64,000 nt of DNA from an uncultured Clostridia bacterium (GCA_964418425.1 CAYQLT010000003.1:4513-68512); one strand, 5' to 3'. Shown: positions 25,761-61,515, counted from the first letter of the stretch. The notes: a model not told the origin generated them from the letters alone. Numbers and translations: made by a program.

Positions 25761-26060
25761 TCACCCGCCGCCCTGGACGTCTGTCTCGATTTGCGCACCC
25801 GGGATGGCTGCCTCCACGTCCCCCCGGTGCCTCAGTACCTGGCGCTCGAACTGCAGCACGTGCCCGTCGACGCTGGTGAGCACCTCGTAAAGGCCAATGA
25901 GGTCCATGGTGTCGGGGACGCCCCGGCGCTCCAGAAGCTCGATGCGAAGGCTCCATCCGTCCGCCCGTCGGGCGACGGCCACCACGCTGGAAAGCTCGAA
26001 CCCCGTCAGCGACTTCAGTTCCTGCACCGCCCGCTCCAAGATAGGCCCGAGCTCGGACAT
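25761..26060 (-). CDS. gvpO: gas vesicle protein GvpO
   Basis: 99 aa. LKSLTGFELSSVVAVARRADGWSLRIELLERRGVPDTMDLIGLYEVLTSVDGHVLQFERQVLRHRG follows the GvpO pattern (LtG..e.vs....dGW.v.vEvlE...iPdT.dl...YeV.ld..G.l..y.R). Confidence 0.85.
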   Translation of the reverse strand: MSELGPILERAVQELKSLTGFELSSVVAVARRADGWSLRIELLERRGVPDTMDLIGLYEVLTSVDGHVLQFERQVLRHRGDVEAAIPGAQIETDVQGGG

Positions 26061-26112
26061 GGCCCGCCCTCCTCTCGCAACCCTAGATGCTGCGCGGCGC
26101 GGTGAGCCACCC

Positions 26113-26457
26113 TCAGCCGCCGCCCCTCGACGGTGCCCGTTGTTCCAACGAGCACCGGAGGCTCTGCAGGGATCGGGAGTGATCGTCGGCGGTCGGTGGC
26201 ACGGCCGCCGTCGGCGCGTCGAGGGGGCTCCCCCGATCCGGCTCGGAACGGCGATCGGGCCCCTGGGCGTTCAGCCAGTCCGTCATGACGCCGTATCGCA
26301 GCATGGTCTCCACACTGGCCAACAACAGCCGGAGGTTGAGCGCGATGAGGGGCACCCCGGACAAGGTGATGAGCACGTCGGCATGCAACACCAGCCCCCG
26401 TTCCAGGGCCCGCTCCAGGAGGTCGGCCAGCTCACCCCGCACAGGCCGGACTGCCAT
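26113..26457 (-). CDS. GvpA/J/M-family small gas vesicle protein (GvpM/S-like)
   Basis: 114 aa from ATG 26457, just after the gvpL stop. The core LADLLERALERGLVLHADVLITLSGVPLIALNLRLLLASVETMLRYG is the GvpA-fold motif, followed by a Pro-rich tail. Confidence 0.75.
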   Translation of the reverse strand: MAVRPVRGELADLLERALERGLVLHADVLITLSGVPLIALNLRLLLASVETMLRYGVMTDWLNAQGPDRRSEPDRGSPLDAPTAAVPPTADDHSRSLQSLRCSLEQRAPSRGGG

Positions 26458-26459
26458 GC

Positions 26460-27548
26460 TCACCGGCCCTCCGGGCGACCCGCAGGCAGGTTCACGAAGC
26501 TGTACGGGGGCCAGGGGCCCGTCAGCCGGATCCGGTAGCCGTCCTCGTTGCACCCGTTCAGGCGCTCCAGGAGACCCTCTACCCGGTCGACGGGCACAAG
26601 ACACGAGAAGTTCCCGACCATCTCTGTGCCATCGGCCATCTCACGCAACCTCTCCGCCCGCACCGCGGCGCACGCAGCCTGCAGGAGGCTCTCCAGCTCT
26701 GCCGCTCGCCGGCGCCCGTCGGCCTCCAGCCGCTCTTCAAGCTGTCGCTCCAGTTCCCGGCGCAGCAGGTAGGCGGTGGCCGCCGGGGCATGCTCAAGGC
26801 GGTCACGAAGGGGCTGCAGCTCGCCGCAGCTCTGCAGGATCGCCTGCCTTGCCGTCTCGCCCTCCCGCAAGAGCTGCACGCCGTATTCCCTGCAGCCGCC
26901 GATGCGCTGAAGGATCTCACCGAGCAGCGGCGAGTGGGCCTGGATCCAGGCCTGCAGGGCTTGCGCCGGATCCTCCCCATCCCCGCCGATGATGGTGTCG
27001 AAGGCGACCGGGATCAGGTCCGGGCAGAGTTCTAAGACGCGCTCCAGAAGCCCCTGGTGCTCCCGAAGCCAGCGCTCCACCACGGCCCGATCCCGGGAGG
27101 CGTAGGGGCAGGGTGCGCACTCGTGCACCACGGCGAACCACTCCCCTGCCCGCACCAGCTTCACGGGGCATCCGTCAAGGCCCGTGCATCCTTCGGGCAG
27201 CCTGGCCGGGCCACGGCCGATGGCATAAAGGTAAAGCGCACCGTCGCGCCGGGCAGCGCTGGGGGCCCCCAGCGCCTGCGGTGCAGCAGCGGAGCCGGAG
27301 GCGACGGGTTCCCTGGACTTCGGGCCCTCACAGCCCGGCCGGGGCGTCTGCGTGGCGGCTTGCCCGGCCAGGCGCGCGACGCACTCGAGCACCCACGGGT
27401 CGAGGCCCTCCATCCCCAGCTCCTCAAGCACGCGCCGCAGGTCGGCCGCGTTCACGGGGGCTCCGGCGGCCTGCATCAACAAGGCCGCCAGTACCGCCGC
27501 CAGGGCTTCTCGGTCGGGGTCGCAGCGGCTCACCGGCCACGGTCCCAT
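26460..27548 (-). CDS. gvpL: GvpL/GvpF-family protein with an N-terminal extension of about 100 aa
   Basis: The core starts at LYLYAIGRG and ends in YRIRLTGPWPPYSFV (the GvpF/L hallmark). Residues 1-100 are extra. There is no alternative start codon near the core, and ATG 27548 overlaps the gvpK 3' end by 19 nt. Confidence 0.8.
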   Translation of the reverse strand: MGPWPVSRCDPDREALAAVLAALLMQAAGAPVNAADLRRVLEELGMEGLDPWVLECVARLAGQAATQTPRPGCEGPKSREPVASGSAAAPQALGAPSAARRDGALYLYAIGRGPARLPEGCTGLDGCPVKLVRAGEWFAVVHECAPCPYASRDRAVVERWLREHQGLLERVLELCPDLIPVAFDTIIGGDGEDPAQALQAWIQAHSPLLGEILQRIGGCREYGVQLLREGETARQAILQSCGELQPLRDRLEHAPAATAYLLRRELERQLEERLEADGRRRAAELESLLQAACAAVRAERLREMADGTEMVGNFSCLVPVDRVEGLLERLNGCNEDGYRIRLTGPWPPYSFVNLPAGRPEGR

Positions 27549-27838
27549 TGCGCCGATTGCGTGATTCGAGTCGACACGTCATCCACCAACCGATCCAGCG
27601 ACCGCCGTACAGACCGAACCACATCGGCAAGTCCTTGCTCAGCCTTGAGTCGCTCCAGGGCGCTGTCAAGCTCCATCAGTGCGGCCCCCAGGCGCTCCAC
27701 CTCAGCCCCCGTGAGGCGGCCGCCGCGCATCCGCTTGAGGGCCTCGGCCTCCAGCACGTCCCGGACGATCTCGACCAGCGCCACCACGAGGCCCAGCAAC
27801 CCCTGCTTCAGCTTTTCGCCGTCCACTTCGACAGCCAT
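27530..27838 (-). CDS. gvpK: gas vesicle protein GvpK
   Basis: 102 aa. LKQGLLGLVVALVEIVRDVLEAEALKRMRGGRLTGAEVERLGAALMEL matches the GvpK signature. Confidence 0.85.
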   Translation of the reverse strand: MAVEVDGEKLKQGLLGLVVALVEIVRDVLEAEALKRMRGGRLTGAEVERLGAALMELDSALERLKAEQGLADVVRSVRRSLDRLVDDVSTRITQSAQWDRGR

Positions 27839-28209
27839 GGCTCCACTTCGGCCTCCGGCCTCCCGCCGGTCGGCGGGAGGATTCTAGCCGGCGGCATCCA
27901 TCCGCACCACGGGCATCCTTCGGTCAGCAACAACTGGCGAGATTCCCCACGACCGCACGAAGGGCACGCTTCCCGAGCCGAGGACGCATGCCGCCAGCCG
28001 ATGGCGTCGAGGTTTACTCCCGAAGGGAACTCAAGACCGTAGCGGGCCGCAGTCTCAAAGGATGCGACGGCAGCCCGGATCTTGATCCCGAGAAGCTCCA
28101 CACCCACCACCGAGACCACGATGTCCGCATTGATCACAAGCCCTTTGTCCAGCAGCCGGTCCAGCAGGTCTACCACGGTGTAGGAAGTGCCCGGCCTGTC
28201 TGCTCCCAT
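27808..28209 (-). CDS. gvpJ: GvpJ-type (GvpA-fold) protein with a C-terminal CxxC...CxxC tail
   Basis: The core is VVDLLDRLLDKGLVINADIVVSVVGVELLGIKIRAAVASFETAARYG. The tail is ACPSCGRGESRQLLLTEGCPWCGW. Its 3' end overlaps gvpK by 31 nt. Confidence 0.85.
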   Translation of the reverse strand: MGADRPGTSYTVVDLLDRLLDKGLVINADIVVSVVGVELLGIKIRAAVASFETAARYGLEFPSGVNLDAIGWRHASSAREACPSCGRGESRQLLLTEGCPWCGWMPPARILPPTGGRPEAEVEPWLSKWTAKS

Positions 28210-28215
28210 TGCGGC

Positions 28216-28464
28216 TCACCCCTCCTCGACCGACCCGCCCGCAAGCGGGCCCGCCATCCGCTCGTACTCCGCTCGGGTTAGCTCTCCCAACGTCAGGGCC
28301 GCTTGCGCGTCCGCCAGCTCTTCGGGGATGGCCCCTTGGGACTCACGATGCTGCTCCCGGCGCGCCAGGGCCACTGCCTCGTCGAGGGCGGCCCAGGCAA
28401 CCCTGAGGGGCAGGGAGACGGGCAAGAACAAGAGATCCGCGAGCCCGAACCTCAGGATGGCCAT
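28216..28464 (-). CDS. gvpG: gas vesicle protein GvpG
   Basis: 82 aa. It has an N-terminal hydrophobic LADLLFLPVSLPLRVAWAAL and then a charged helix ending GELTRAEYERM, which is the GvpG pattern. It overlaps the gvpF 3' end by 13 nt. Confidence 0.75.
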   Translation of the reverse strand: MAILRFGLADLLFLPVSLPLRVAWAALDEAVALARREQHRESQGAIPEELADAQAALTLGELTRAEYERMAGPLAGGSVEEG

Positions 28465-29327
28465 AGCTCATCCCCATTCCGGGCATCCCGGTGCCCGTCC
28501 GGGCGTCGGGGCTCGCCCTCCGCACCCGCATCGCCCCCAGGGGGAGCCAGCCGCAGCTCTGTGAAGACAAACGGGGGCAGGGGAGCTGTGACCCGGAACC
28601 GAATGCGCCGCTGGATTCGGGCTTCCAGGTGCTCCACAGCCGTCCGCAGCGAACCCTCCGCTCCGGCCGGGATCAGGGCCGCGAAATTGAGGAGCATCCG
28701 GACGCCGATGGGCTCCCGCTCGCGCAGCTGCAGCACCTGTCCGGCGAGCGTGCGCCGCACCAGGTCCCCGTAACGCTGCCGCCAGGCGTGCGCCACCTGT
28801 TCGGTGAGTTCCCCGATCCGGGCCCGCACCAGTGCCGGCGCGGTGCGCGGCGCACCCCCGCCGGGCGCAAGCCACCGCCGGGCCACCGGGTGCTTGAGAA
28901 GTTCCCGTACCACGGCCTGGCGGTCCCAGAAGGCCACTACGGCCGCCTCCACCTTGCCCTGCATTCGGTGAAGTTCGGCACGCACCGCTGGCTCGTTGTA
29001 ACGTATCAGTTCCACCACTTCGGCCCGTCCGGGCGCCGCCACCCCGAACCGAAATGGGAGCACCGTCGCCCCGTTGGTCAGAAGCCAGCACGCCAACCCC
29101 GCGTGGCAGGCGAGGTCGTGGGGCGTTGGGCGGTCGATGGGACGCTGCAACGGGCTGGCCGCGACCACCAGGCCCTCCCACTCAACGAACTCCACCGGGG
29201 CTCCGCCGATACCGGGAGGGGGAGCACTGACGCCGCAAGGGAACTCGGCGCCATGAGCCGGTGCGCCGGGTTCGGTGGAGAGCGCCGGTCCGGAAAGCTC
29301 AGCGACGCCGTAAAGGTGCCAGACCAT
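28452..29327 (-). CDS. gvpF: GvpF/GvpL-family protein
   Basis: Start at MVWHLYGV with AGGAG upstream. It ends ...RFRVTAPLPPFVF plus a tail. The upstream 71 codons of the track ORF are probably not translated. Confidence 0.8.
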   Translation of the reverse strand: MVWHLYGVAELSGPALSTEPGAPAHGAEFPCGVSAPPPGIGGAPVEFVEWEGLVVAASPLQRPIDRPTPHDLACHAGLACWLLTNGATVLPFRFGVAAPGRAEVVELIRYNEPAVRAELHRMQGKVEAAVVAFWDRQAVVRELLKHPVARRWLAPGGGAPRTAPALVRARIGELTEQVAHAWRQRYGDLVRRTLAGQVLQLREREPIGVRMLLNFAALIPAGAEGSLRTAVEHLEARIQRRIRFRVTAPLPPFVFTELRLAPPGGDAGAEGEPRRPDGHRDARNGDELWPS

Positions 29328-29536
29328 GGCCAACTCCTGTCGATCCGTAGACCTGGGTGACTCGGGCCGCGTATGAGACGCGTACGATCCCCGATCCCAC
29401 GGTTCCGACAAACCAATGCGGGCCCGAAGCTTCCTCCAGTTCGCCGACCCGTTCGCAAGCCCAGCGCAGGAGCCGGAGCCATCGGCCCCCGCGACGGGGC
29501 CACACCGTGCTCGCCCTCTCTCTCGGCTCCATTTTG

Positions 29537-30457
29537 TCAATCCCCCTCGTGATCGGCAGGCCGCGCGGCGAGCGTGGGACCCAGCCGCAGGTGCCCTCCG
29601 GGTACGCCCACCACATCGGCCAAAAGCTGGCGAAATCGGGCATCCTGGGGATCCATTGGCAGGCCTTCGGCGGCCACCACCCTCGCCGCCATGAGCGAGC
29701 GGCGTAGCAGCGAGCCGAAGGCGCCCAGCCTGCCCTGCTCAAGCCGGCCGCGGACCGCCTCCACCAGGCGCCGCGCCGCCTCGGGCTCCATGCCGCACCG
29801 GCGGGCGACGATGACCGCCAGCTCCTCGAGGCCGTAGCCCGGCAGCCAGAGGGTCACGACCCTATCCAGCAAAGCCCGCTGCACGGCGTGCGAACCCACG
29901 GACTCGCCGGGGTCGCTGGTGAGGATCAGGCGAAAATCCTCGTGAACGGGCATCAGCGTCACCTCGTCCCGCGAGGTGGCCAGGGGTAGCACCCGCTCCT
30001 CCAGCACCGGCAACAGCACGCTGTGGGCCTCGGGCCTCGACCGGGTGAACTCGTCGTACACCACCGTGGCCCCGGTCCGGCAGGCAACCGCCAGGCGGTT
30101 GGGCACCCAGCGCTCGCTCACCAGCTCTTCCCGTTTGCGCACGTTGCGAATGAATTCGTCGACCACCAGGCGCCGCCGGTAGCTGACCGGGGCCCCCACA
30201 AGCTCGGCCGTCCCCAGCGCCTCGTCGCCGTGGACCAGGAAGACCGGGCGTGAACGCCGGTGTGCGAGGAGAAGGGCCAGCGTTGTCTTCCCGACCCCGG
30301 GCGGCCCGGCCAGGTGGACCGGGATGTTGAGAGAAAGGTACATCTCGGCCCGCCGGACCACCGAGAGCACCTCGGGTGTCAGCACCACTTCGCCTCGGGC
30401 GACGCCGGGCACGCTCCAGGTTTCGGTCGCAGGCAAGCTGAACTCCGACACCTTCAA
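29537..30457 (-). CDS. gvpN: gas vesicle AAA+ ATPase GvpN
   Basis: Walker A GPPGVGKTTLA and Walker B VVYDEFTRSRPE, with MoxR/CbbQ-like length (306 aa). It sits immediately after gvpA. TTG start. Confidence 0.9.
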   Translation of the reverse strand: MKVSEFSLPATETWSVPGVARGEVVLTPEVLSVVRRAEMYLSLNIPVHLAGPPGVGKTTLALLLAHRRSRPVFLVHGDEALGTAELVGAPVSYRRRLVVDEFIRNVRKREELVSERWVPNRLAVACRTGATVVYDEFTRSRPEAHSVLLPVLEERVLPLATSRDEVTLMPVHEDFRLILTSDPGESVGSHAVQRALLDRVVTLWLPGYGLEELAVIVARRCGMEPEAARRLVEAVRGRLEQGRLGAFGSLLRRSLMAARVVAAEGLPMDPQDARFRQLLADVVGVPGGHLRLGPTLAARPADHEGD

Positions 30458-30490
30458 ACCCGCCTCGGCCCCCGAGGGTCATGCCGCTTG

Positions 30491-30510
30491 CGCCGCCCAA
30501 CCTGGCGGCG
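30491..30510 (-). promoter_or_regulatory. 7-bp GC stem-loop (CGCCGCC-N6-GGCGGCG) in the gvpA-gvpN spacer; possible attenuator or processing site
   Basis: Read directly from the sequence. It lies in the 99-nt spacer after the highly expressed structural gene and has no U-tract. Confidence 0.25.
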
Positions 30511-30556
30511 AACACCCGTCGCGGCACGAGCCCCCGGGGATGCGGATGCGCGGCGG

Positions 30557-30772
30557 CTAGGCGGCCGCCGGCGCAGGGTGCAGAAGGCCAACCGCTTCAG
30601 CATACTTGAGCCAGGTATCCACCGAGGCCACAACGACGCGGGCCTCAACGGAAAGGAGCTCGATCCCCACCAACGAAACCTTCGCCCAGATGTCGACCAC
30701 CACACCTTTGTCGAGGACCCGGTCCAACACCTCGACAAGAGTGGAGGTCTGCATGGCCGTTTTGACGGACAA
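30557..30772 (-). CDS. gvpA: major gas vesicle structural protein GvpA
   Basis: (L/M)[62 protein letters not shown] is collinear with canonical GvpA. A TTG start at 30772 lies 8 nt after GGAGG and gives the canonical N-terminal length; ATG 30754 is the alternative. Confidence 0.92.
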
Positions 30773-31019
30773 CCTCGACTCCTCCCTTCCGGAACCTGAG
30801 CCAGAGGTGGCCGCGGTCACAGCCGCTCTAGTGTATGCTCCGGCTTCTTGGAGGCTTTCACCACCCCCGGCGTTGCCGGTTTCCCTCAAAACCTATGAGG
30901 GTGGCGAGAAAAGCGGGATGGCTCCGCGGTCCTGACCGGGAAGGGGTAGGGGAAACCGACCTGCCGGTGCGGGGGGGACCCGGCCGGGAGCAACGCCGTT
31001 TCGAAACGAGAAACCCGCC

Positions 31020-32831
31020 TCAGGGATGCCAGCGCACGATACGACGTTCGGCCGCCCTCAGGGCCCAGTTGCTCCCGATGCCTAGAGCGGACAGGACGAC
31101 GATACCCGCCATCAGCCGGCTTACCAGCATCAGCTCGCCGCCCTGCAAGATCAAGAAGCCCAGTCCTGCGGAGGCGGCGATCATCTCCGCTGAGACCACC
31201 AGCAAAAGCGCCATCCCGGCCCCCAGGCGAAGTCCGGCGAAGACGGTGGGCAAGGCCCCGACGATGGAGACCTTGGAAATGACCTGCAACGGCCGGGCCC
31301 CCAGGCTTCGAGCCGCCCGTACCAGTGAGGAGTCCACGCCCCGGACGCCCGCCGCGGTGTTAACGGCCACCGGGAAAAAGACGCCGATGGCGATGACGGC
31401 CACCTTGGAGGTCTCGCCGATCCCCAGCCACAGCACCAGCAGGGGAAGAATGGCAATCTTCGGGATGGGGTAAGTGAGGGCGATGAGGGGGTCAAGCAAC
31501 GCATCGGCCAGGGCGGACAGCCCGATGCCAAGCCCCACGGCAAACCCGGCCCCCGAGCCCACCAGCCAGCCCAGCACGATGCGACGCAGGCTCAGGCTCA
31601 GGCTCCCCAGCAGTTCGCCCGTGGCTACCAACCGGGCGAGCTCCGCCACGACGTCGGAGAGGCGGGGGAGAAAAAGCGGCGGGATCAGGCCGGCCCGCGC
31701 CACGCTTTCCCACACCACCAGCACCAGAACCACCGACGCCGCTCCCAGCCATCCCCTCGGGAGCGGCCGCCGGGCCGCAGCGGGGCTGCGGGATGCCGCC
31801 AGGACAGCTTTCGAAGATGAGGGTGACGGTTCCAGCGGGTCTGCCCCGCCCGCCGTATCCTGCCTGCCGCCCTCCTCACGACGGGCGGCTGCTGGGACAG
31901 CGGTGAGTTCGTCGCCGCGCGGCAAAGCCTCGCCAGCCGAACGCTGTGGCGACAGCGCGTGTCGGGCGGCAGCAGGAAGTCGGGAGCCGGTCCGACCGTC
32001 CAGCTCCCACATGGCCTGCCGGGCGTCGTCCCGGATCAAGGTCCACAGCCGGTGGGTGAACGCTGCAAACTCGGCGCTGGCCGTCAACGCCTCGGTGCGG
32101 GGGCGGTCGAAAGGCACCCGCAACTCTGCGCGGACCCGCCCCGGCCGACGGCTCATGAGGATGATCCGGTCGGCGAGAAACGCCGCCTCCTCGATGTTGT
32201 GGGTCACGTAGAGCACCGTCTGGCCGGTTCGGCTCCACAGGTCCAGCAGGTCCTGCTGCAGCAAAGCCCGGGTTTGGGCATCCAGCGCCGACAGTGGCTC
32301 GTCCATCAGCAACACCCGCGGACCCACAGCCAGTGCCCGGGCGATGCCCACCCGTTGTTTCATGCCTCCCGACAGCTCGGAGGGAAGTCGACCCTCCACG
32401 GAGTGAAGCCCCACCCGCGCCAGCCACTCGCGCCCCACCGCCTGGCGGCGCGCCCGGCTCACCCCTCGCACCTCCAGGCCGAACGTCACGTTGTCCAGTA
32501 CGGTGCGCCACGGGAACAGGGCGAACTCCTGGAACACCATCGCGGTGAGGGCCCGCTCCCCGCCGGAGCCTGCCTGCCGCGGTCCTGCCCCGCTGCCCCG
32601 GGCGCCTCGCACCCCAGGGCCCACGTCGAGAAACCGAACCTGCCCCGCGGACGGCGGCAAAAACCCCGCCACCACCGACAAAAGGGTGGACTTGCCGCAC
32701 CCGCTGGGGCCCAGGATGGCCACGAACTCGCCCGACTCCACCTGGAAGCTGACGTCTTCCAGCGCCACGACGCCCTCCCGGCCGTGGCGGCCGGGAAAAC
32801 GCACATGCAACCGGTCGACCTCAACGCGCAC
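31020..32831 (-). CDS. fused ABC ATPase-permease of the NitT/TauT (SsuB-SsuC-like) family
   Basis: The N-half has GPSGCGKST, LSGGMKQRVGIARAL and LLMDEPLSALD. A Pro/Ala-rich linker follows. The C-half is a 6-TM BPD permease (VRAARSLGARPLQVISKVSIVGALP). It is a single uninterrupted 603-codon frame. Confidence 0.8.
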   Translation of the reverse strand: MRVEVDRLHVRFPGRHGREGVVALEDVSFQVESGEFVAILGPSGCGKSTLLSVVAGFLPPSAGQVRFLDVGPGVRGARGSGAGPRQAGSGGERALTAMVFQEFALFPWRTVLDNVTFGLEVRGVSRARRQAVGREWLARVGLHSVEGRLPSELSGGMKQRVGIARALAVGPRVLLMDEPLSALDAQTRALLQQDLLDLWSRTGQTVLYVTHNIEEAAFLADRIILMSRRPGRVRAELRVPFDRPRTEALTASAEFAAFTHRLWTLIRDDARQAMWELDGRTGSRLPAAARHALSPQRSAGEALPRGDELTAVPAAARREEGGRQDTAGGADPLEPSPSSSKAVLAASRSPAAARRPLPRGWLGAASVVLVLVVWESVARAGLIPPLFLPRLSDVVAELARLVATGELLGSLSLSLRRIVLGWLVGSGAGFAVGLGIGLSALADALLDPLIALTYPIPKIAILPLLVLWLGIGETSKVAVIAIGVFFPVAVNTAAGVRGVDSSLVRAARSLGARPLQVISKVSIVGALPTVFAGLRLGAGMALLLVVSAEMIAASAGLGFLILQGGELMLVSRLMAGIVVLSALGIGSNWALRAAERRIVRWHP

Positions 32832-34140: not shown

Positions 34141-34623
34141 TCAGAGCTCCAGCTTCAGGTGCCCGGGTGGCGCGGGCGGAAGCTGGTAGACAATGTACCC
34201 GTACCCCGTCGCCTTGTGGCAGCGGTTGCAACCCTCGACACCCGCGTTCCAGGCAGCCTCGAATTCACTCCAGTTCTTGGCCTTGATGGCGGCATCGATG
34301 GGTTGCAGGTAGGTCTGCTCAAAGCGCTGCAGCCCGCTCTTTCGCTTCGGCCGCGTCGTTTCGGCGACCTCCTGGATCTCCAGCGCCTCCTTCAGTTGAT
34401 ATGCGGCCATGTCCCAGTTGCCCGCCTTCGCGGCGTAATACATGATGCCGTACCGATCCGCATACTCCCGCATGACGGTCCCGAGGCCGGGCTGGATCGC
34501 CGCCAGGGTGTTCAGCTTCTCGTCCGTGGTTCCCGTCAGCCAATCGCTGGCCGCATACGCCACCCCCAGCAGCCCGGCCAACAAGGCGACTACGCCCGCC
34601 GACACCATCAGCCGCCGATACAT
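34141..34623 (-). CDS. membrane-anchored class II (four-helix-bundle, cytochrome c'/c556-like) monohaem cytochrome c
   Basis: ATG 34623 with AAGGAGGGG upstream. It has an N-terminal TM anchor, a helical body, and a single CNRCH motif near the C-terminus, as in class II cytochromes c. Confidence 0.6.
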   Translation of the reverse strand: MYRRLMVSAGVVALLAGLLGVAYAASDWLTGTTDEKLNTLAAIQPGLGTVMREYADRYGIMYYAAKAGNWDMAAYQLKEALEIQEVAETTRPKRKSGLQRFEQTYLQPIDAAIKAKNWSEFEAAWNAGVEGCNRCHKATGYGYIVYQLPPAPPGHLKLEL

Positions 34624-34695
34624 CCGATCCCCTCCTTGCACCATGCATCCTTGTCCCGTCGCCACAAATCCCCGGGCGCCACCGATGCGTGGCGC

Positions 34696-36993
34696 TCAGC
34701 GCGCCGCCCCGCCGCCAGGGGAACCGCGGCCTCTCTCCATCCGGCGCAGCTTCAATTGCAGGCTGAACGCCGCGAACAGCAGAAGCCCAACGGACACCGC
34801 CAGCCCTCGGCGCCGGAAGCGAACCTCGTCCAGCGCGGCCCGCCCGGCCGCCTCGCCCTTCGCGGCAAACTCCAGCCCCTCCCGAACCACCTTTTGAACC
34901 TCATCGGCGAAGGCGACGTGCACCGTGGTGCGGGCCAGAATCAACCGGGTGGTCGCTTCGCCCACATCCAGCCGGGCGTCGCCCACCTCCATCCCCAGCT
35001 GCTCGGCCCGGTCGAGAACCCCGTCCACCTCCGCGAGTCGCGCGCTCAGCCCGTCCAGGCCGGCTCGGATGGCTTCCGCTGCCGCCAGACCCCGAGAGCC
35101 TGGCTCGTGGCATCGCACGCAGACCGAACTCAAGCCGCTTCCCACCATCTCGTCGGTGGGCGGCACAATCTCATGCTGGCCGTGGCAGGCGATGCACTCC
35201 GGCAGCCCCTCGGCGTCAAAGGCCTTCTTGTGGGGGCCTTTCACAAACAGGTCCCGAGTGGCGCTGTGGCACTGCGCGCACACGTTGGCCACGGATTCTA
35301 CGCCGGGCGGCACCGCCCCGTGGTTGCCGTGGCAGTCGTTACAGGCCGGCGCCAACCGGCTGCCCCGCTCCAGCAAGGCCACCCCGTGGACGCTGCGGCG
35401 GTACTGTTCAAACTGGTCGGTGGGGATATCGTAGCCCTTCATGTAGATGGCGTTGGCGTGGCAGCGGGCGCAGGTGAGGGGAACGTTCAGCCGGTTCACC
35501 GGCGACTTCACATCCGCGACGGACCGCACCGGGTGAACTCCATGGCAGTTCGTACAGGTGGCCACCCGGTTGTCACCGCGGGCGAGCTGCTTTCCGTGAA
35601 CGCTGGTGCGGTACTGAGCCTCCTGGTCGGTGGGAAGCGAAGGATTGAACTTCCGCATGACATCGGGGCTGCTGTGGCAACGCCCGCAAAAGGCCGGGGT
35701 CTCCTGGCGGGAGGGAGCCCCGATGAAGCCTTCCGCCTCGCTCATCGCCTCGTCCATGTCCTCTTTCGCCGGGTTACCCCCATGGCAGTCCGCGCAGCCG
35801 AGCCCTGCGGCCACGTGGGCATCGTCCTTCATCTCGGCCACCCGGCGCTCCCACTCCTCGTCCAGCTGGGCGTGGCACTGGGAGCAGGAGTCCTGGCCTG
35901 CCGGGGCGGCCGGAGGGGATGGGGCCGCCTTTGCCTCGCGGGCCGGCAGCAGGCTCCAGAGGGTCATCATGACGACGAAGGCGACCGCCAGTGCTCCCAG
36001 CAGCGTCACCAGGGCGTGTCGGCGCTCCCGTGCGGCCCATACGTCGAGGAAGGGCACGGCGATGAGCACCAACGCCGCCAGGCCAAAGGCCACCACCCCC
36101 ACCATCTCGCCCTCCAGCCCCAGGATGTGCCCCGGCAGGAGCCTCAAGGTCTGGTACATGAAGAGGAAGTACCACTCGGGCTTGATCCCGGCGGGCGCCG
36201 GAGCCAGCGGGTCCGCCTTCTCGCCGGCCGGCCATGGGAACAGGGTGGCCAGGGCAGCCAGCGCCGCCAGAAGCACAAGCCACACGGCGGCCTCCCGCAG
36301 CAGGAAGTTGGGATAGAAAGGGATGGAACCGTGCGGGTTCGTGCCGATGGGATGGCTCATCCCGTGGATTTGAACGAGGAGCAGGTGCACTCCCAGGATC
36401 ACGGTGGTCAGGGCCGGCAGGATTGCGACGTGAATCCCGAAGAAGCGGGTCAGGGTGGCCTCGGTGACGTCGGGGCCTCCCCGAAGCAGCAAGAGCAGCC
36501 CCTTGCCCACCCACGGCACAGACCCCACGATCTCGGTGCCCACCTTGGTGGCAAAGAAGGCAAGCTTGTTCCAGGGCAGCAGGTACCCTGTAAACCCAAA
36601 CGTCAAAGTGATCAGAAACAACAGGGCCCCGCTGACCCACGTCAGCTCTCGGGGACGGCGGTACGCGCGCACGAAGAACGCGCCGGCCATGTGAACGAAG
36701 ACCCAAAACACCATCAGGTTGGCTGACCAGCTGTGGATGGAGCGGATGAGCCAGCCAAAGCGAACCCGCGACATGATGAAGGTAATGCTCTCGTACGCCG
36801 CGTCCGCAGTGGGACGGTAGTACATCAGCAGGAGAAGGCCGGTGATGACCTGGATGACAAAGAAGAAGAGGGTGATGCCGCCGAAGTAGTACACGTAGGA
36901 TAGGCGGTGCACGGGCACGCCCTTGTGGCGGAGAAACTCGCCGACGGCTCCCAGTCGAAGGCGTTCGTCGGCCCAGCGAGACGTGGAAGCCAT
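34696..36993 (-). CDS. cytochrome b (b6 + subunit IV type) fused to a nonahaem c-type cytochrome domain with a C-terminal TM anchor
   Basis: The N-part has SIHSWSANLMVFWVFVHM, FFGIHVAILP...GVHLLLVQIHG and PEWYFLFMYQTLR. The C-part has 9 CxxCH motifs (CSQCH, CADCH, CGRCH, CTNCH, CARCH, CNDCH, CAQCH, CIACH, CVRCH). It starts at ATG 36993, 14 nt after the Rieske stop. Confidence 0.85.
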   Translation of the reverse strand: MASTSRWADERLRLGAVGEFLRHKGVPVHRLSYVYYFGGITLFFFVIQVITGLLLLMYYRPTADAAYESITFIMSRVRFGWLIRSIHSWSANLMVFWVFVHMAGAFFVRAYRRPRELTWVSGALLFLITLTFGFTGYLLPWNKLAFFATKVGTEIVGSVPWVGKGLLLLLRGGPDVTEATLTRFFGIHVAILPALTTVILGVHLLLVQIHGMSHPIGTNPHGSIPFYPNFLLREAAVWLVLLAALAALATLFPWPAGEKADPLAPAPAGIKPEWYFLFMYQTLRLLPGHILGLEGEMVGVVAFGLAALVLIAVPFLDVWAARERRHALVTLLGALAVAFVVMMTLWSLLPAREAKAAPSPPAAPAGQDSCSQCHAQLDEEWERRVAEMKDDAHVAAGLGCADCHGGNPAKEDMDEAMSEAEGFIGAPSRQETPAFCGRCHSSPDVMRKFNPSLPTDQEAQYRTSVHGKQLARGDNRVATCTNCHGVHPVRSVADVKSPVNRLNVPLTCARCHANAIYMKGYDIPTDQFEQYRRSVHGVALLERGSRLAPACNDCHGNHGAVPPGVESVANVCAQCHSATRDLFVKGPHKKAFDAEGLPECIACHGQHEIVPPTDEMVGSGLSSVCVRCHEPGSRGLAAAEAIRAGLDGLSARLAEVDGVLDRAEQLGMEVGDARLDVGEATTRLILARTTVHVAFADEVQKVVREGLEFAAKGEAAGRAALDEVRFRRRGLAVSVGLLLFAAFSLQLKLRRMERGRGSPGGGAAR

Positions 36994-37007
36994 CTCCCGT
37001 CCCCCCG

Positions 37008-37481
37008 CTACGAAGGCCTGCTCACGATGACCTCCTGGCCCTTCAAAGTGACGACGTACTCGGGAAGCGGCCTGGGGGGCGGACCGGCGAGCACCTGCCC
37101 GTTGAGGTCGTAATGGCCGTCGTGACAGGCGCACCAGATGTGGCCCAGGTCAGCCCGGTACTGCACCGTGCACCCCAAGTGGGTGCAGACCGCCGAAAAG
37201 GCCCGGTACGCGCCGGTCGGCGTGCGCACCAGGATCGCCGGGCGCCCGCCGAAGTTAAAGATCTTCCCGGAGCCGGAGGGAAGCTCGTCGACCCGGGCTG
37301 CCACCACGCTGCCCGCCGCCACTTCCTTCACGGGCGGCGGAACGAAGTAGTGCATGACCGGGTAAAGCACCGAACCCCCGAGGCCCACCAGGCTGCCGGC
37401 CACCAGGTAGTCCACCACGTCCCGCCGGGGCACCTCCGGGCCCTCCTTCTCCGGATGCCCCTTCTTGCTCTCCTCGGCCAT
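37008..37481 (-). CDS. Rieske [2Fe-2S] subunit of a Rieske/cytochrome b complex
   Basis: 157 aa with a TM anchor and the two cluster boxes CTHLGC and CACHDGHY. Confidence 0.9.
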   Translation of the reverse strand: MAEESKKGHPEKEGPEVPRRDVVDYLVAGSLVGLGGSVLYPVMHYFVPPPVKEVAAGSVVAARVDELPSGSGKIFNFGGRPAILVRTPTGAYRAFSAVCTHLGCTVQYRADLGHIWCACHDGHYDLNGQVLAGPPPRPLPEYVVTLKGQEVIVSRPS

Positions 37482-60351: not shown

Positions 60352-61515
60352 GTGACAGGTCGGATGCGCCTGACCGCTGTGGCCTCGCTGGCGCTGCTTC
60401 TCGTTGCCGGGATCAGCCTCGCGCTGGCGTGGTTTCTCCCGGCCGCAGTAGGGGCCAGCACAGAGGATCCCGAGGCCCAGTGGATGGTCTCGGGGCATTC
60501 GAACGAAGAGCGGGTCCACGAGACGTCTCTCGTAGAGGTCCGAGGGGCAACCGCCGCGCACTGCGGCCGTTGCCACTCCGAACAAGGGTTTGTTGCGTGG
60601 GTGCCGCAGTTGAAGGCCGGAAACCCGGGCCTTCTGGCGGGGCCCGACGGAAAGCCGGCCACGGTGGAACACCTGAAGAGCCTCGGGCTGACGGCCGACA
60701 CCGCCCGACCCATCACATGCGACGCGTGCCACACGGAGACCTACGAAACCCGGATCCGCGACTCGACCCCGATGCTGCCAGCGGGCTTCCAGGCGTCGGG
60801 AGTTGGAGCCGGAGCGCTGTGCATGACGTGCCACAACACCCGCAACGGACGCATTGAGTGGAACGTGGCCGACGTGAAGCGGTACACCGCGCCGCACCAC
60901 TCCGCGCAGGCGGACGTCATCATGGGTCAAAACGTGTACTTCCTGGACTTCGGCGCGGCCGACATGGTGTCGCCCCACGCGGCCTTCGTGGGCGACTCGT
61001 GCGTGACCTGCCACCTGGAGCTGGGCAAAAACGGGCACGAGTTCAAGCCGTCCGAGCAGGTATGCGCCAACTGCCACGGGCCGCAGCTGACCCCGGAGCG
61101 GGTTCAGAAGCCGGTGAAGGGACTGCTCGCCGAAGTGATGCAGGCCTTCAACAACCGGTTCCTGGCCCTCTACGCCGGCAAGGTCGCCCGGGCAGACCTC
61201 TGGGATCCCGAAACCGACCAGACGACCCGGGGTGCCAGCCTGAACGGGGCGGAGATCCGCTCGGTCGAGCTGTTGGGCATCCATGGCCAGATGGGCCTGA
61301 AGATGACCATGGCCGACGGGCGTGAGCTGTACAGCCAGCTGGGCGGCCTCAAGGACAGCGCCGGCAAGCCCGTTGTGCCCACCACCGACCCGCTGGTCAA
61401 GGCCGGGTGGAACTACCTGCTGGTGCTGTGGGATGGTTCCTACGGCGTGCACAACCCGAGCTTTGCCCGCACGGTGCTGCTCACGACCATCGGGGAGCTG
61501 AAGACCGGCCGCTGA
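60352..61515 (+). CDS. membrane-anchored pentahaem c-type cytochrome
   Basis: GTG start after GGAGAGGAGG, with a signal anchor LTAVASLALLLVAGISLALA. It has five CxxCH motifs (CGRCH, CDACH, CMTCH, CVTCH, CANCH). Confidence 0.85.
   Translation: MTGRMRLTAVASLALLLVAGISLALAWFLPAAVGASTEDPEAQWMVSGHSNEERVHETSLVEVRGATAAHCGRCHSEQGFVAWVPQLKAGNPGLLAGPDGKPATVEHLKSLGLTADTARPITCDACHTETYETRIRDSTPMLPAGFQASGVGAGALCMTCHNTRNGRIEWNVADVKRYTAPHHSAQADVIMGQNVYFLDFGAADMVSPHAAFVGDSCVTCHLELGKNGHEFKPSEQVCANCHGPQLTPERVQKPVKGLLAEVMQAFNNRFLALYAGKVARADLWDPETDQTTRGASLNGAEIRSVELLGIHGQMGLKMTMADGRELYSQLGGLKDSAGKPVVPTTDPLVKAGWNYLLVLWDGSYGVHNPSFARTVLLTTIGELKTGR

Follow-up and report, generated by a model that had tools for sequence, protein, structure and literature searches.

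The window analysed in this study is a stretch of 64,000 nucleotides from an uncultured Clostridia bacterium (GCA_964418425.1 CAYQLT010000003.1:4513-68512). Between positions 34141 and 37481 its minus strand carries three tightly spaced genes, the second of which joins a cytochrome b to a nine-haem cytochrome c in a single polypeptide. The first gene (37008..37481) encodes a Rieske [2Fe-2S] subunit of 157 aa, recognised by PF00355 and by its cluster boxes. The whole fusion gene (34696-36993, 765 codons) starts with an ATG at position 36993, 14 bases beyond the Rieske gene; the maximal open reading frame (ORF), counted from a GTG, comprises 812 aa, compared with 765 aa from the ATG. After a gap of 72 nt follows the gene of a four-helix-bundle monohaem cytochrome of 160 aa (34141..34623), which was delimited by its ORF, by its own ribosome-binding site (AAGGAGG) preceding the ATG at 34623, and by the starts of 332 homologues, with which this start agrees. 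All three ORFs of the three-protein operon proposed in the original prediction were found, on this strand and at these positions. Judged from the arrangement of the genes, the four-helix cytochrome gene may be co-transcribed with the fusion gene.

The Rieske protein is of the Tat type, with an N-terminal RR motif (PRRDVVDYL) ahead of a single membrane helix. It matches the Pfam Rieske family with E = 1e-14, and PetC-type NCBIfam models match it below their cut-off. Its cluster boxes are CTHLGC and CACHDGHY; in box II a Gly stands at the position of the Ser in the high-potential type (CPCHGSxY). The exchange of this Ser for Gly points to a lower potential and to menaquinol as substrate, and the quinone used here is therefore probably menaquinol.

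Residues 1-350 of the fusion (35944..36993) form the cytochrome b moiety, as assigned by Pfam, PDB matches, AlphaFold and hydropathy. Pfam gave Cytochrome_B (PF00033) with E = 7.8e-50 and Cytochrom_B_C with E = 6.7e-13, which together with the Rieske match bears out the reading as a Rieske/cytochrome b operon. By sequence, the moiety matched b6 chains (1e-56) and subunit IV best in the PDB, and a fold search with the whole fusion returned cytochrome b chains only. The haem ligands H87 and H101 of helix B are separated by 13 residues and those of helix D, H188 and H203, by the b6-typical 14; all four are invariant in 37 homologues. Seven membrane helices, corresponding to the four of b6 and the three of subunit IV, are present in one continuous chain, and with the helix D spacing and the PDB matches they support the b6 plus subunit IV type. 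The Qo motif PEWY lies in GIKPEWYFLFMYQ, with P272, E273 and W274 invariant in the same homologues. Residues 1-369 of the fusion contain no cysteine, so the conserved N-terminal Cys of haem ci/cn is absent and binding of the haem ci known from b6f and Bacillota-type complexes is impossible. Against NF040969, the equivalog model of Geobacter ExtP, the moiety scored 216 bits over residues 29-213 (cut-off 290).

The cytochrome b moiety passes through a short linker (residues 351-365, PAREAKAAPSPPAAP; 35899..35943), located by comparison of junctions and by a predicted local distance difference test score (pLDDT) below 50 at residues 353-365, into a periplasmic cytochrome c domain (residues 366-632; 35098..35898). 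This domain contains exactly nine CxxCH motifs, at residues 370, 400, 436, 480, 508, 551, 572, 600 and 625. It matches only the generic multihaem models Cytochrome_C7, Cytochrom_c3_2 and Paired_CXXCH_1; the profile annotation recommended with the original prediction thus found these three families along with the two cytochrome b families in the fusion. Searched alone against the PDB by sequence, the haem domain gave nothing significant. By Pfam and hydropathy, a nine-haem c7/c3-type domain has replaced the monohaem Rieske acceptor of the cytochrome f type. The haem motifs are conserved in the 37 homologues; six further histidines (H393, H466, H487, H536, H558 and H607) are invariant there and are candidate distal ligands, which suggests that most of the nine haems are bis-His coordinated. 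Since they would be mostly bis-His, the haems are presumably of low potential.

Behind the haem domain, AlphaFold and hydropathy place a three-helix coiled coil (residues 634-728), a membrane helix (729-750) and a basic tail (34699..35097). The coiled-coil tail matched no Pfam family. The AlphaFold model of the fusion, built on the 37 homologues, has a mean pLDDT of 83.8 and shows, in order, seven membrane helices, the disordered linker 353-365, the haem domain, the coiled coil, the eighth membrane helix (TM8) and the basic tail. The coiled coil is modelled at pLDDT 85-98, and its last helix continues as TM8. Hydropathy likewise gives eight hydrophobic helices, of which seven belong to cytochrome b and the eighth spans 729-750, and the distribution of charges agrees with the model. 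With the N-terminus inside, the end of helix G lies on the outer side of the membrane, which puts the haem domain in the periplasm; TM8 then leads the chain back to the cytoplasm, where the short tail ends. Helix count, hydropathy and charges therefore support the periplasmic haem domain for which a topology prediction had been advised.

A continuous frame of 765 codons could also be an assembly or binning artefact or a decaying pseudogene, in a cell that makes separate b and haem subunits or nothing at all; the nearest relatives do have split genes, and the source genome is a metagenome-assembled genome (MAG) of 138 contigs. The identical 765-aa protein was found on four contigs from two runs. 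A sister population, sampled independently in a different study (L127/L128), keeps the fused 765-aa gene in the same synteny, with the gene order peptide-binding protein, Rieske, fused gene, NMT1-type binding protein and ABC gene. Between the two fused genes, identity reaches 93% in amino acids and 89% in nucleotides, without gaps, and despite 11% nucleotide differences the frame of the sister contains no stop; neither a stop nor a frameshift, which the original prediction had named as what would separate b from the haem domain, interrupts the junction there. The ratio of non-synonymous to synonymous substitutions (dN/dS) between them is 0.086 for the whole gene, 0.057 for the cytochrome b part, 0.097 for the haem domain and 0.13 for the coiled coil with TM8. 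The linker evolves faster, yet it stays in frame. In addition, the flanking genes anchor the contig in Limnochordales, and at least 120 other fused clusters exist. Because a diverged sister retains the fused frame under purifying selection, an artefact or pseudogene is very unlikely, and we give it next to no weight.

How widely the arrangement occurs was followed by a scan with one genome per species. It yielded more than 600 pattern matches; a relative is encoded at 578 of them, and the best 80 loci were examined. Operons of a Rieske gene, a cytochrome b gene and a nine- or eleven-haem gene are accordingly present in at least 578 species-level genomes of many phyla. Among the best 80 these are Acidobacteriota (Blastocatellia, Pyrinomonadaceae, Chloracidobacterium, Thermoanaerobaculia and Vicinamibacteria), Zixibacteria, KSB1, Aminicenantes, Ignavibacteria, Calditrichota, Gemmatimonadota, Binatia and Sysuimicrobiota. 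The initial view that multihaem partners are found mainly in anammox bacteria and Deltaproteobacteria is not borne out. Over the whole length, the window fusion is 43-70% identical to its relatives. In 75 of the 80 loci the cytochrome b gene is immediately preceded by a Rieske gene. Cytochrome b (~360 aa) and the haem protein are two adjacent genes in 72 of the 78 informative non-self loci and fused in six; in split loci the haem protein has a start of its own and a signal peptide, 9 or 11 CxxCH motifs and a helix at the C-terminus.

There is no curated model of this family of nine-haem membrane cytochromes. An exhaustive HMMER search with the haem, coiled-coil and TM8 part as a 403-residue query retrieved 3570 representatives at E <= 1e-3 and 576 (50%-identity clusters) at E <= 1e-30, with matches spanning residues ~4-395 of the query. 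Among the best 150, stand-alone proteins of 400-450 aa predominate; nine CxxCH motifs occur in 106 of these 150 and cytochrome b sequence in 4-5. The window protein has the architecture of the family, i.e. nine CxxCH motifs in conserved register, a helical coiled coil and a C-terminal helix directly after cytochrome b. A length-restricted protein search yielded the at least 120 fused clusters mentioned above (685-1021 aa). In a FastTree phylogeny of the b moiety (197 rows) the fused or split state changes at least 10 times, with at least 5 changes forced by well-supported branches. The fused form is thus a recurrent minority in a large family, with at least 5-10 independent events. Regarding the same fusion in related genomes, the sister population and other lineages are indeed fused, whereas the nearest relatives and most loci are split. 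The fusion had also been thought to imply an unusual electron exit route; this route is common to the whole family, and the fusion only replaces the signal peptide of the haem subunit by helix G.

In ~45 loci the two genes share one frame with a single stop between them, and programmed read-through or recoding was considered for these. It was rejected because all three stops occur (TAG 14, TAA 10, TGA 8) and because the haem genes all begin with a Met and signal peptide of their own immediately behind the stop; the excess of same-frame split loci reflects a ranking bias of tblastn.

Some members outside the window carry a tandem duplication of the whole nine-haem module (760 aa, ~18 haems), and others have N-terminal repeats of an 'IPH...GR..C..CH' haem unit (both kinds among P0243, P0311, P0312 and P0359). 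From these duplications and repeats, the haem wire has been lengthened in a modular manner in other lineages.

The nearest relatives of the window locus belong to Ca. Fervidifonticultor sextus and Ca. Calidihabitans tengchongensis (Sysuimicrobiota, 69-70% identity) and to one further MAG; all three are split. In the b-moiety phylogeny, which had been proposed as a check, the window and these three loci form a clade with 99% support, placing the fusion in the window's own lineage. At the junction of the split loci (L076, L049 and L051) a stop 2-7 residues past helix G is followed by a start codon, a signal peptide of ~25 residues, a Pro/Ala-rich stretch and the first CxxCH. In the window the signal peptide is gone, and helix G leads directly into the Pro/Ala stretch.

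The host genome is that of a heat-loving member of the Limnochordales (Bacillota). A flanking binding protein is 77% identical to that of Geochorda subterranea and 65% to that of Limnochorda pilosa, and this gene and the flanking ABC genes are syntenic in Geochorda subterranea at 77-79% identity. None of 40 relatives from the same family, order or class (Limnochordia) has the operon; only ordinary b6-like genes at ~40% identity were found there. Because the nearest relatives are split, the 40 relatives are without the operon and the flanks are syntenic with Geochorda, the locus points to horizontal acquisition followed by local fusion. Based on these comparisons, the simplest reading is that acquisition was followed by fusion in the common ancestor of the two sister populations. 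A contig mis-binned from a Sysuimicrobiota genome was rejected on the identity and synteny of the flanks with Geochorda subterranea.

The third protein begins with a typical Sec signal peptide, and the AYA|AS cleavage site is conserved throughout its family. Its single haem motif, CNRCH, occupies residues 132-136, 25 residues from the C-terminus and at the end of the last helix. AlphaFold (pLDDT 82.8) gives helices at 47-66, 70-90, 92-114 and 118-139. Neither Pfam, even at E <= 10 and with PF01322 included, nor NCBIfam gave a match; one homologue has a precomputed PF01322 match. A profile search of the PDB reached cytochrome c' at non-significant E values of 0.2-0.6. The best Foldseek matches were cytochromes c' and Kusta0087/0088, a small four-helix cytochrome c of Kuenenia, with a TM-score of at most 0.71 on the target and E values of 0.2-1, likewise non-significant. 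As in class II cytochromes c (c', c556 and the b562 fold), a four-helix bundle carries the CxxCH at the end of its last helix. The invariant Met51, where the first bundle helix begins, is a candidate sixth ligand and is placed like the Met found early in this helix in six-coordinate class II members, which suggests a six-coordinate His/Met electron carrier. Unlike the class II proteins, it has ~25 extra N-terminal residues and belongs to a separate, tight family of at least 332 proteins (~159 aa, 53-68% identity). The original description as a four-helix, class-II-like monohaem cytochrome is thus supported; the membrane anchor assigned to it is a cleavable signal peptide.

Homologues of this protein elsewhere (L083-L086, L123-L126) are usually encoded alone downstream of a two-component system, near Aq_1264_TM, cupredoxin, CopC and YHS genes. 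These neighbourhoods hint at a periplasmic redox role of the family linked to copper or envelope stress.

Taken together, we regard the locus as encoding a quinol:cytochrome c oxidoreductase of the complex III type, with a nine-haem domain instead of the monohaem cytochrome c1/f, that was transferred and then fused, and we assign this reading a probability of about 0.72. For the electron path, whose direction and acceptors we infer, homology suggests that quinol, probably menaquinol, would be oxidised at the PEWY Qo site. The first electron would pass to the Tat-exported Rieske cluster, from there to the nearest c-haem and along the nine-haem chain to periplasmic acceptors. The second would cross the membrane via haems bL and bH to the Qi site and complete a Q cycle without haem ci. 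Helix G of cytochrome b would export the haem domain in place of the signal peptide of a separate haem subunit, while the coiled coil and the eighth helix would hold its distal end at the membrane. The two-gene core would have come from a Sysuimicrobiota-like donor into a Limnochordales lineage, with the fusion occurring afterwards, and the secreted four-helix cytochrome would be at most an optional acceptor. Because the neighbourhoods of the relatives are rich in cytochromes and, in the two Sysuimicrobiota loci, also include Mo-bisPGD oxidoreductases, the nine-haem family would serve as a general entry point from quinol to periplasmic cytochromes. With genes for cytochrome c maturation and for four haem-copper oxidases, the host genome has the means to produce the complex.

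Several observations weigh against this interpretation. Low-potential bis-His haems would presumably fit electron uptake as well as electron output. The host also has a canonical locus of cupredoxin, b6, subunit IV, Rieske (CPCHGS) and dihaem c genes (contig C6:20710-24922). A literature search found no expression, haem-staining, activity or other biochemical characterisation of the nine-haem family. The third gene is absent from all 80 related loci, and in the sister population it has decayed to a remnant of 40 codons, in which '...YYAAKAGN.DMAAY' is joined to 'PGHLKLEL*' and the haem site is deleted. Finally, the pentahaem cytochrome discussed below occurs in five relatives of the same family without the operon and in none of the other families searched, which indicates vertical inheritance.

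The third gene is also absent from the 40 Limnochordia relatives; seven genomes of related loci contained none but one unlinked copy, and the Sysuimicrobiota genomes contained none. As a conserved subunit of the complex it was therefore rejected, and this part of the earlier description falls. The decayed remnant in the sister indicates that the common ancestor already had the gene but that it is dispensable. In the window genome its product may accept electrons from the haem wire, at most as an optional acceptor.

Besides the 160-aa cytochrome, a pentahaem and an octahaem cytochrome are candidate acceptors. The pentahaem protein (60352-61515, plus strand) is encoded 23 kb away in the window, has a non-haem C-terminal domain and is 48% identical to the product of the gene adjoining the split operon of Fervidifonticultor (L076 8407-9618). 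The octahaem protein is encoded on contig C22 and is 48% identical to a neighbour of the Fervidifonticultor operon. These two cannot be claimed as co-acquired partners, because the pentahaem gene is present in the five relatives without the operon.

The same haem inventory can be read with the current reversed: the complex would then mainly run backwards, the nine-haem wire taking electrons from donors in the periplasm or outside the cell, such as Fe(II), reduced sulfur or partner cytochromes, into the quinone pool or an uphill pathway. The homologous PetAB of Zixibacteria RBG-1 (locus L073) lies inside an MtrAB-type cluster that its authors interpreted as serving iron oxidation (PMC3903129). 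Most neighbours in the related loci are additional multihaem cytochromes and class I cytochromes c, many of these loci also encode a large putative outer-membrane protein, and the mostly bis-His haems leave the direction unfixed. The window operon, on the other hand, has no outer-membrane conduit, Cyc2 or MtrAB gene beside it, and its Qo/Rieske machinery is intact and of the quinol-oxidising type. The nearest relatives adjoin periplasmic molybdoenzymes, which are more often electron acceptors, and the organism has its four oxidases and a standard bc complex. We consider a mainly reversed complex unlikely.

In 19 of the related loci (L075 3009-5267 and 18 Blastocatellia/Pyrinomonadaceae loci) a conserved secreted protein of ~750 aa without a Pfam match is encoded upstream of the Rieske gene. 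Its composition makes an outer-membrane beta-barrel probable, and the protein is a possible outer-membrane partner of the complex in Acidobacteriota.

Mo-bisPGD oxidoreductases with a Tat signal adjoin the split operon in both Sysuimicrobiota loci (L049 8888-12231; L076 2304-5456), in one case together with a 4Fe-4S subunit. Their position directly beside the operon would suit a complex that is a dedicated donor to one periplasmic reductase, such as a Mo-bisPGD enzyme, instead of a general entry point; the class-II-like cytochrome 72 nt past the fusion, with its own ribosome-binding site, would equally suit a donor dedicated to that small protein. Against the former, the operon has no molybdoenzyme gene at its flanks, either in the window or in the sister population. 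Against the latter stand the absence of the small cytochrome from the 80 loci and its single unlinked copy in the seven genomes, its decay in a sister whose fusion is under selection, and the two-component, cupredoxin and copper-related surroundings of its homologues. A dedicated donor of either kind appears to us even less likely than the reversed complex, and we retain the general quinol:cytochrome c oxidoreductase.

Complexes of this kind are already known from sequence surveys, and one fused form has been mentioned before, so the discovery is modest. In that survey the cytochrome b of Ignavibacterium album is described as 'fused to a triheme c7 domain', and other clades are reported to carry fusions to class I cytochrome c (Kao & Hunte 2014, PMC4122944). 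The I. album protein was placed in the GPWY clade (PMC4122944), whereas the Qo motif of the window protein is PEWY. The class I fusions have one or two haem domains, compared with a nine-haem c7/c3-type module with its own C-terminal anchor in the window. Multihaem cytochromes have been proposed as ancestral or early Rieske acceptors (Dibrova et al. 2013, as cited in PMC5317091). Two genome papers on CSP1-3/Sysuimicrobiota make no mention of complex III. With the other Rieske/b/nine- or eleven-haem operons the window shares the same three modules in the same order, nine haem sites, the coiled coil and the C-terminal helix; it differs by the fusion in its own lineage and by a Limnochordales host with operon-free relatives.

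In Geobacter sulfurreducens, the ExtMNOPQ/Cbc6 system consists of the Rieske protein ExtO, the b6-like cytochrome b ExtP, the membrane protein ExtQ, the 12-haem ExtM and the 10-haem ExtN (PMC5877670). A b6-type cytochrome b and a Rieske protein coupled to multihaem cytochromes in place of c1/f are common to both systems. In Geobacter the b6 and subunit-IV-like proteins are separate, as are the 10- and 12-haem cytochromes. None of the rhodanese, porin-like or selenoprotein genes of the Geobacter cluster was found in the window. The anammox complexes Kustd1480-1485 and Kuste4569-4574 have a b6-like cytochrome b and a membrane-anchored hexa- or octahaem cytochrome c in place of cytochrome f, and the published models show the multihaem subunit embracing the complex with long helices (PMC12954380). 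They consist of separate subunits and include haem cN and NAD(P) oxidoreductase or HAO-like subunits, which the window locus lacks; the distinction follows from the descriptions. The genes adjoining the window operon are ABC-transporter components only, with no NAD(P) oxidoreductase and no HAO-like octahaem subunit among them.

Multihaem Rieske/b complexes represent a proposed early anaerobic complex III found in many uncultured phyla. The main value of the present locus is that of a compact, tractable representative for biochemical and structural work: it is a two-gene version with a covalently attached haem wire, it is under purifying selection, and its lineage has the cultured relatives Geochorda and Limnochorda. 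It could be a convenient target for expression and cryo-EM. In addition, it documents a cross-phylum transfer followed by gene fusion, for which a close split form is available for comparison. A more speculative idea, which we rate about as low as the reversed complex, is that the Rieske protein and the fusion form a self-contained mobile two-gene 'plug-in' that wires the quinone pool of a bacterium lacking a multihaem network to periplasmic or extracellular partners, the fusion being an adaptation for transfer between phyla, in this case from Sysuimicrobiota-like donors to Limnochordales. If so, separate export and stoichiometric assembly of the haem subunit would no longer be needed.

Some further features of the genomes were recorded. 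The host genome has four cytochrome b homologues in all, the further two being encoded at C17:21854-22921 and C27:20202-22499 (355-363 aa); these have 'KPPWF/KPPWP' in place of PEWY, and one of them adjoins a cupredoxin gene. The nine-gene gas-vesicle cluster of the window seems to be missing in the sister population, as far as the gene table indicates (L127 8054-11601 compared with window 25761-32831), which would be an indel separating two close populations. In the sister population, SPOCS/FG-GAP genes come after the ABC gene and one gene of 236 aa.

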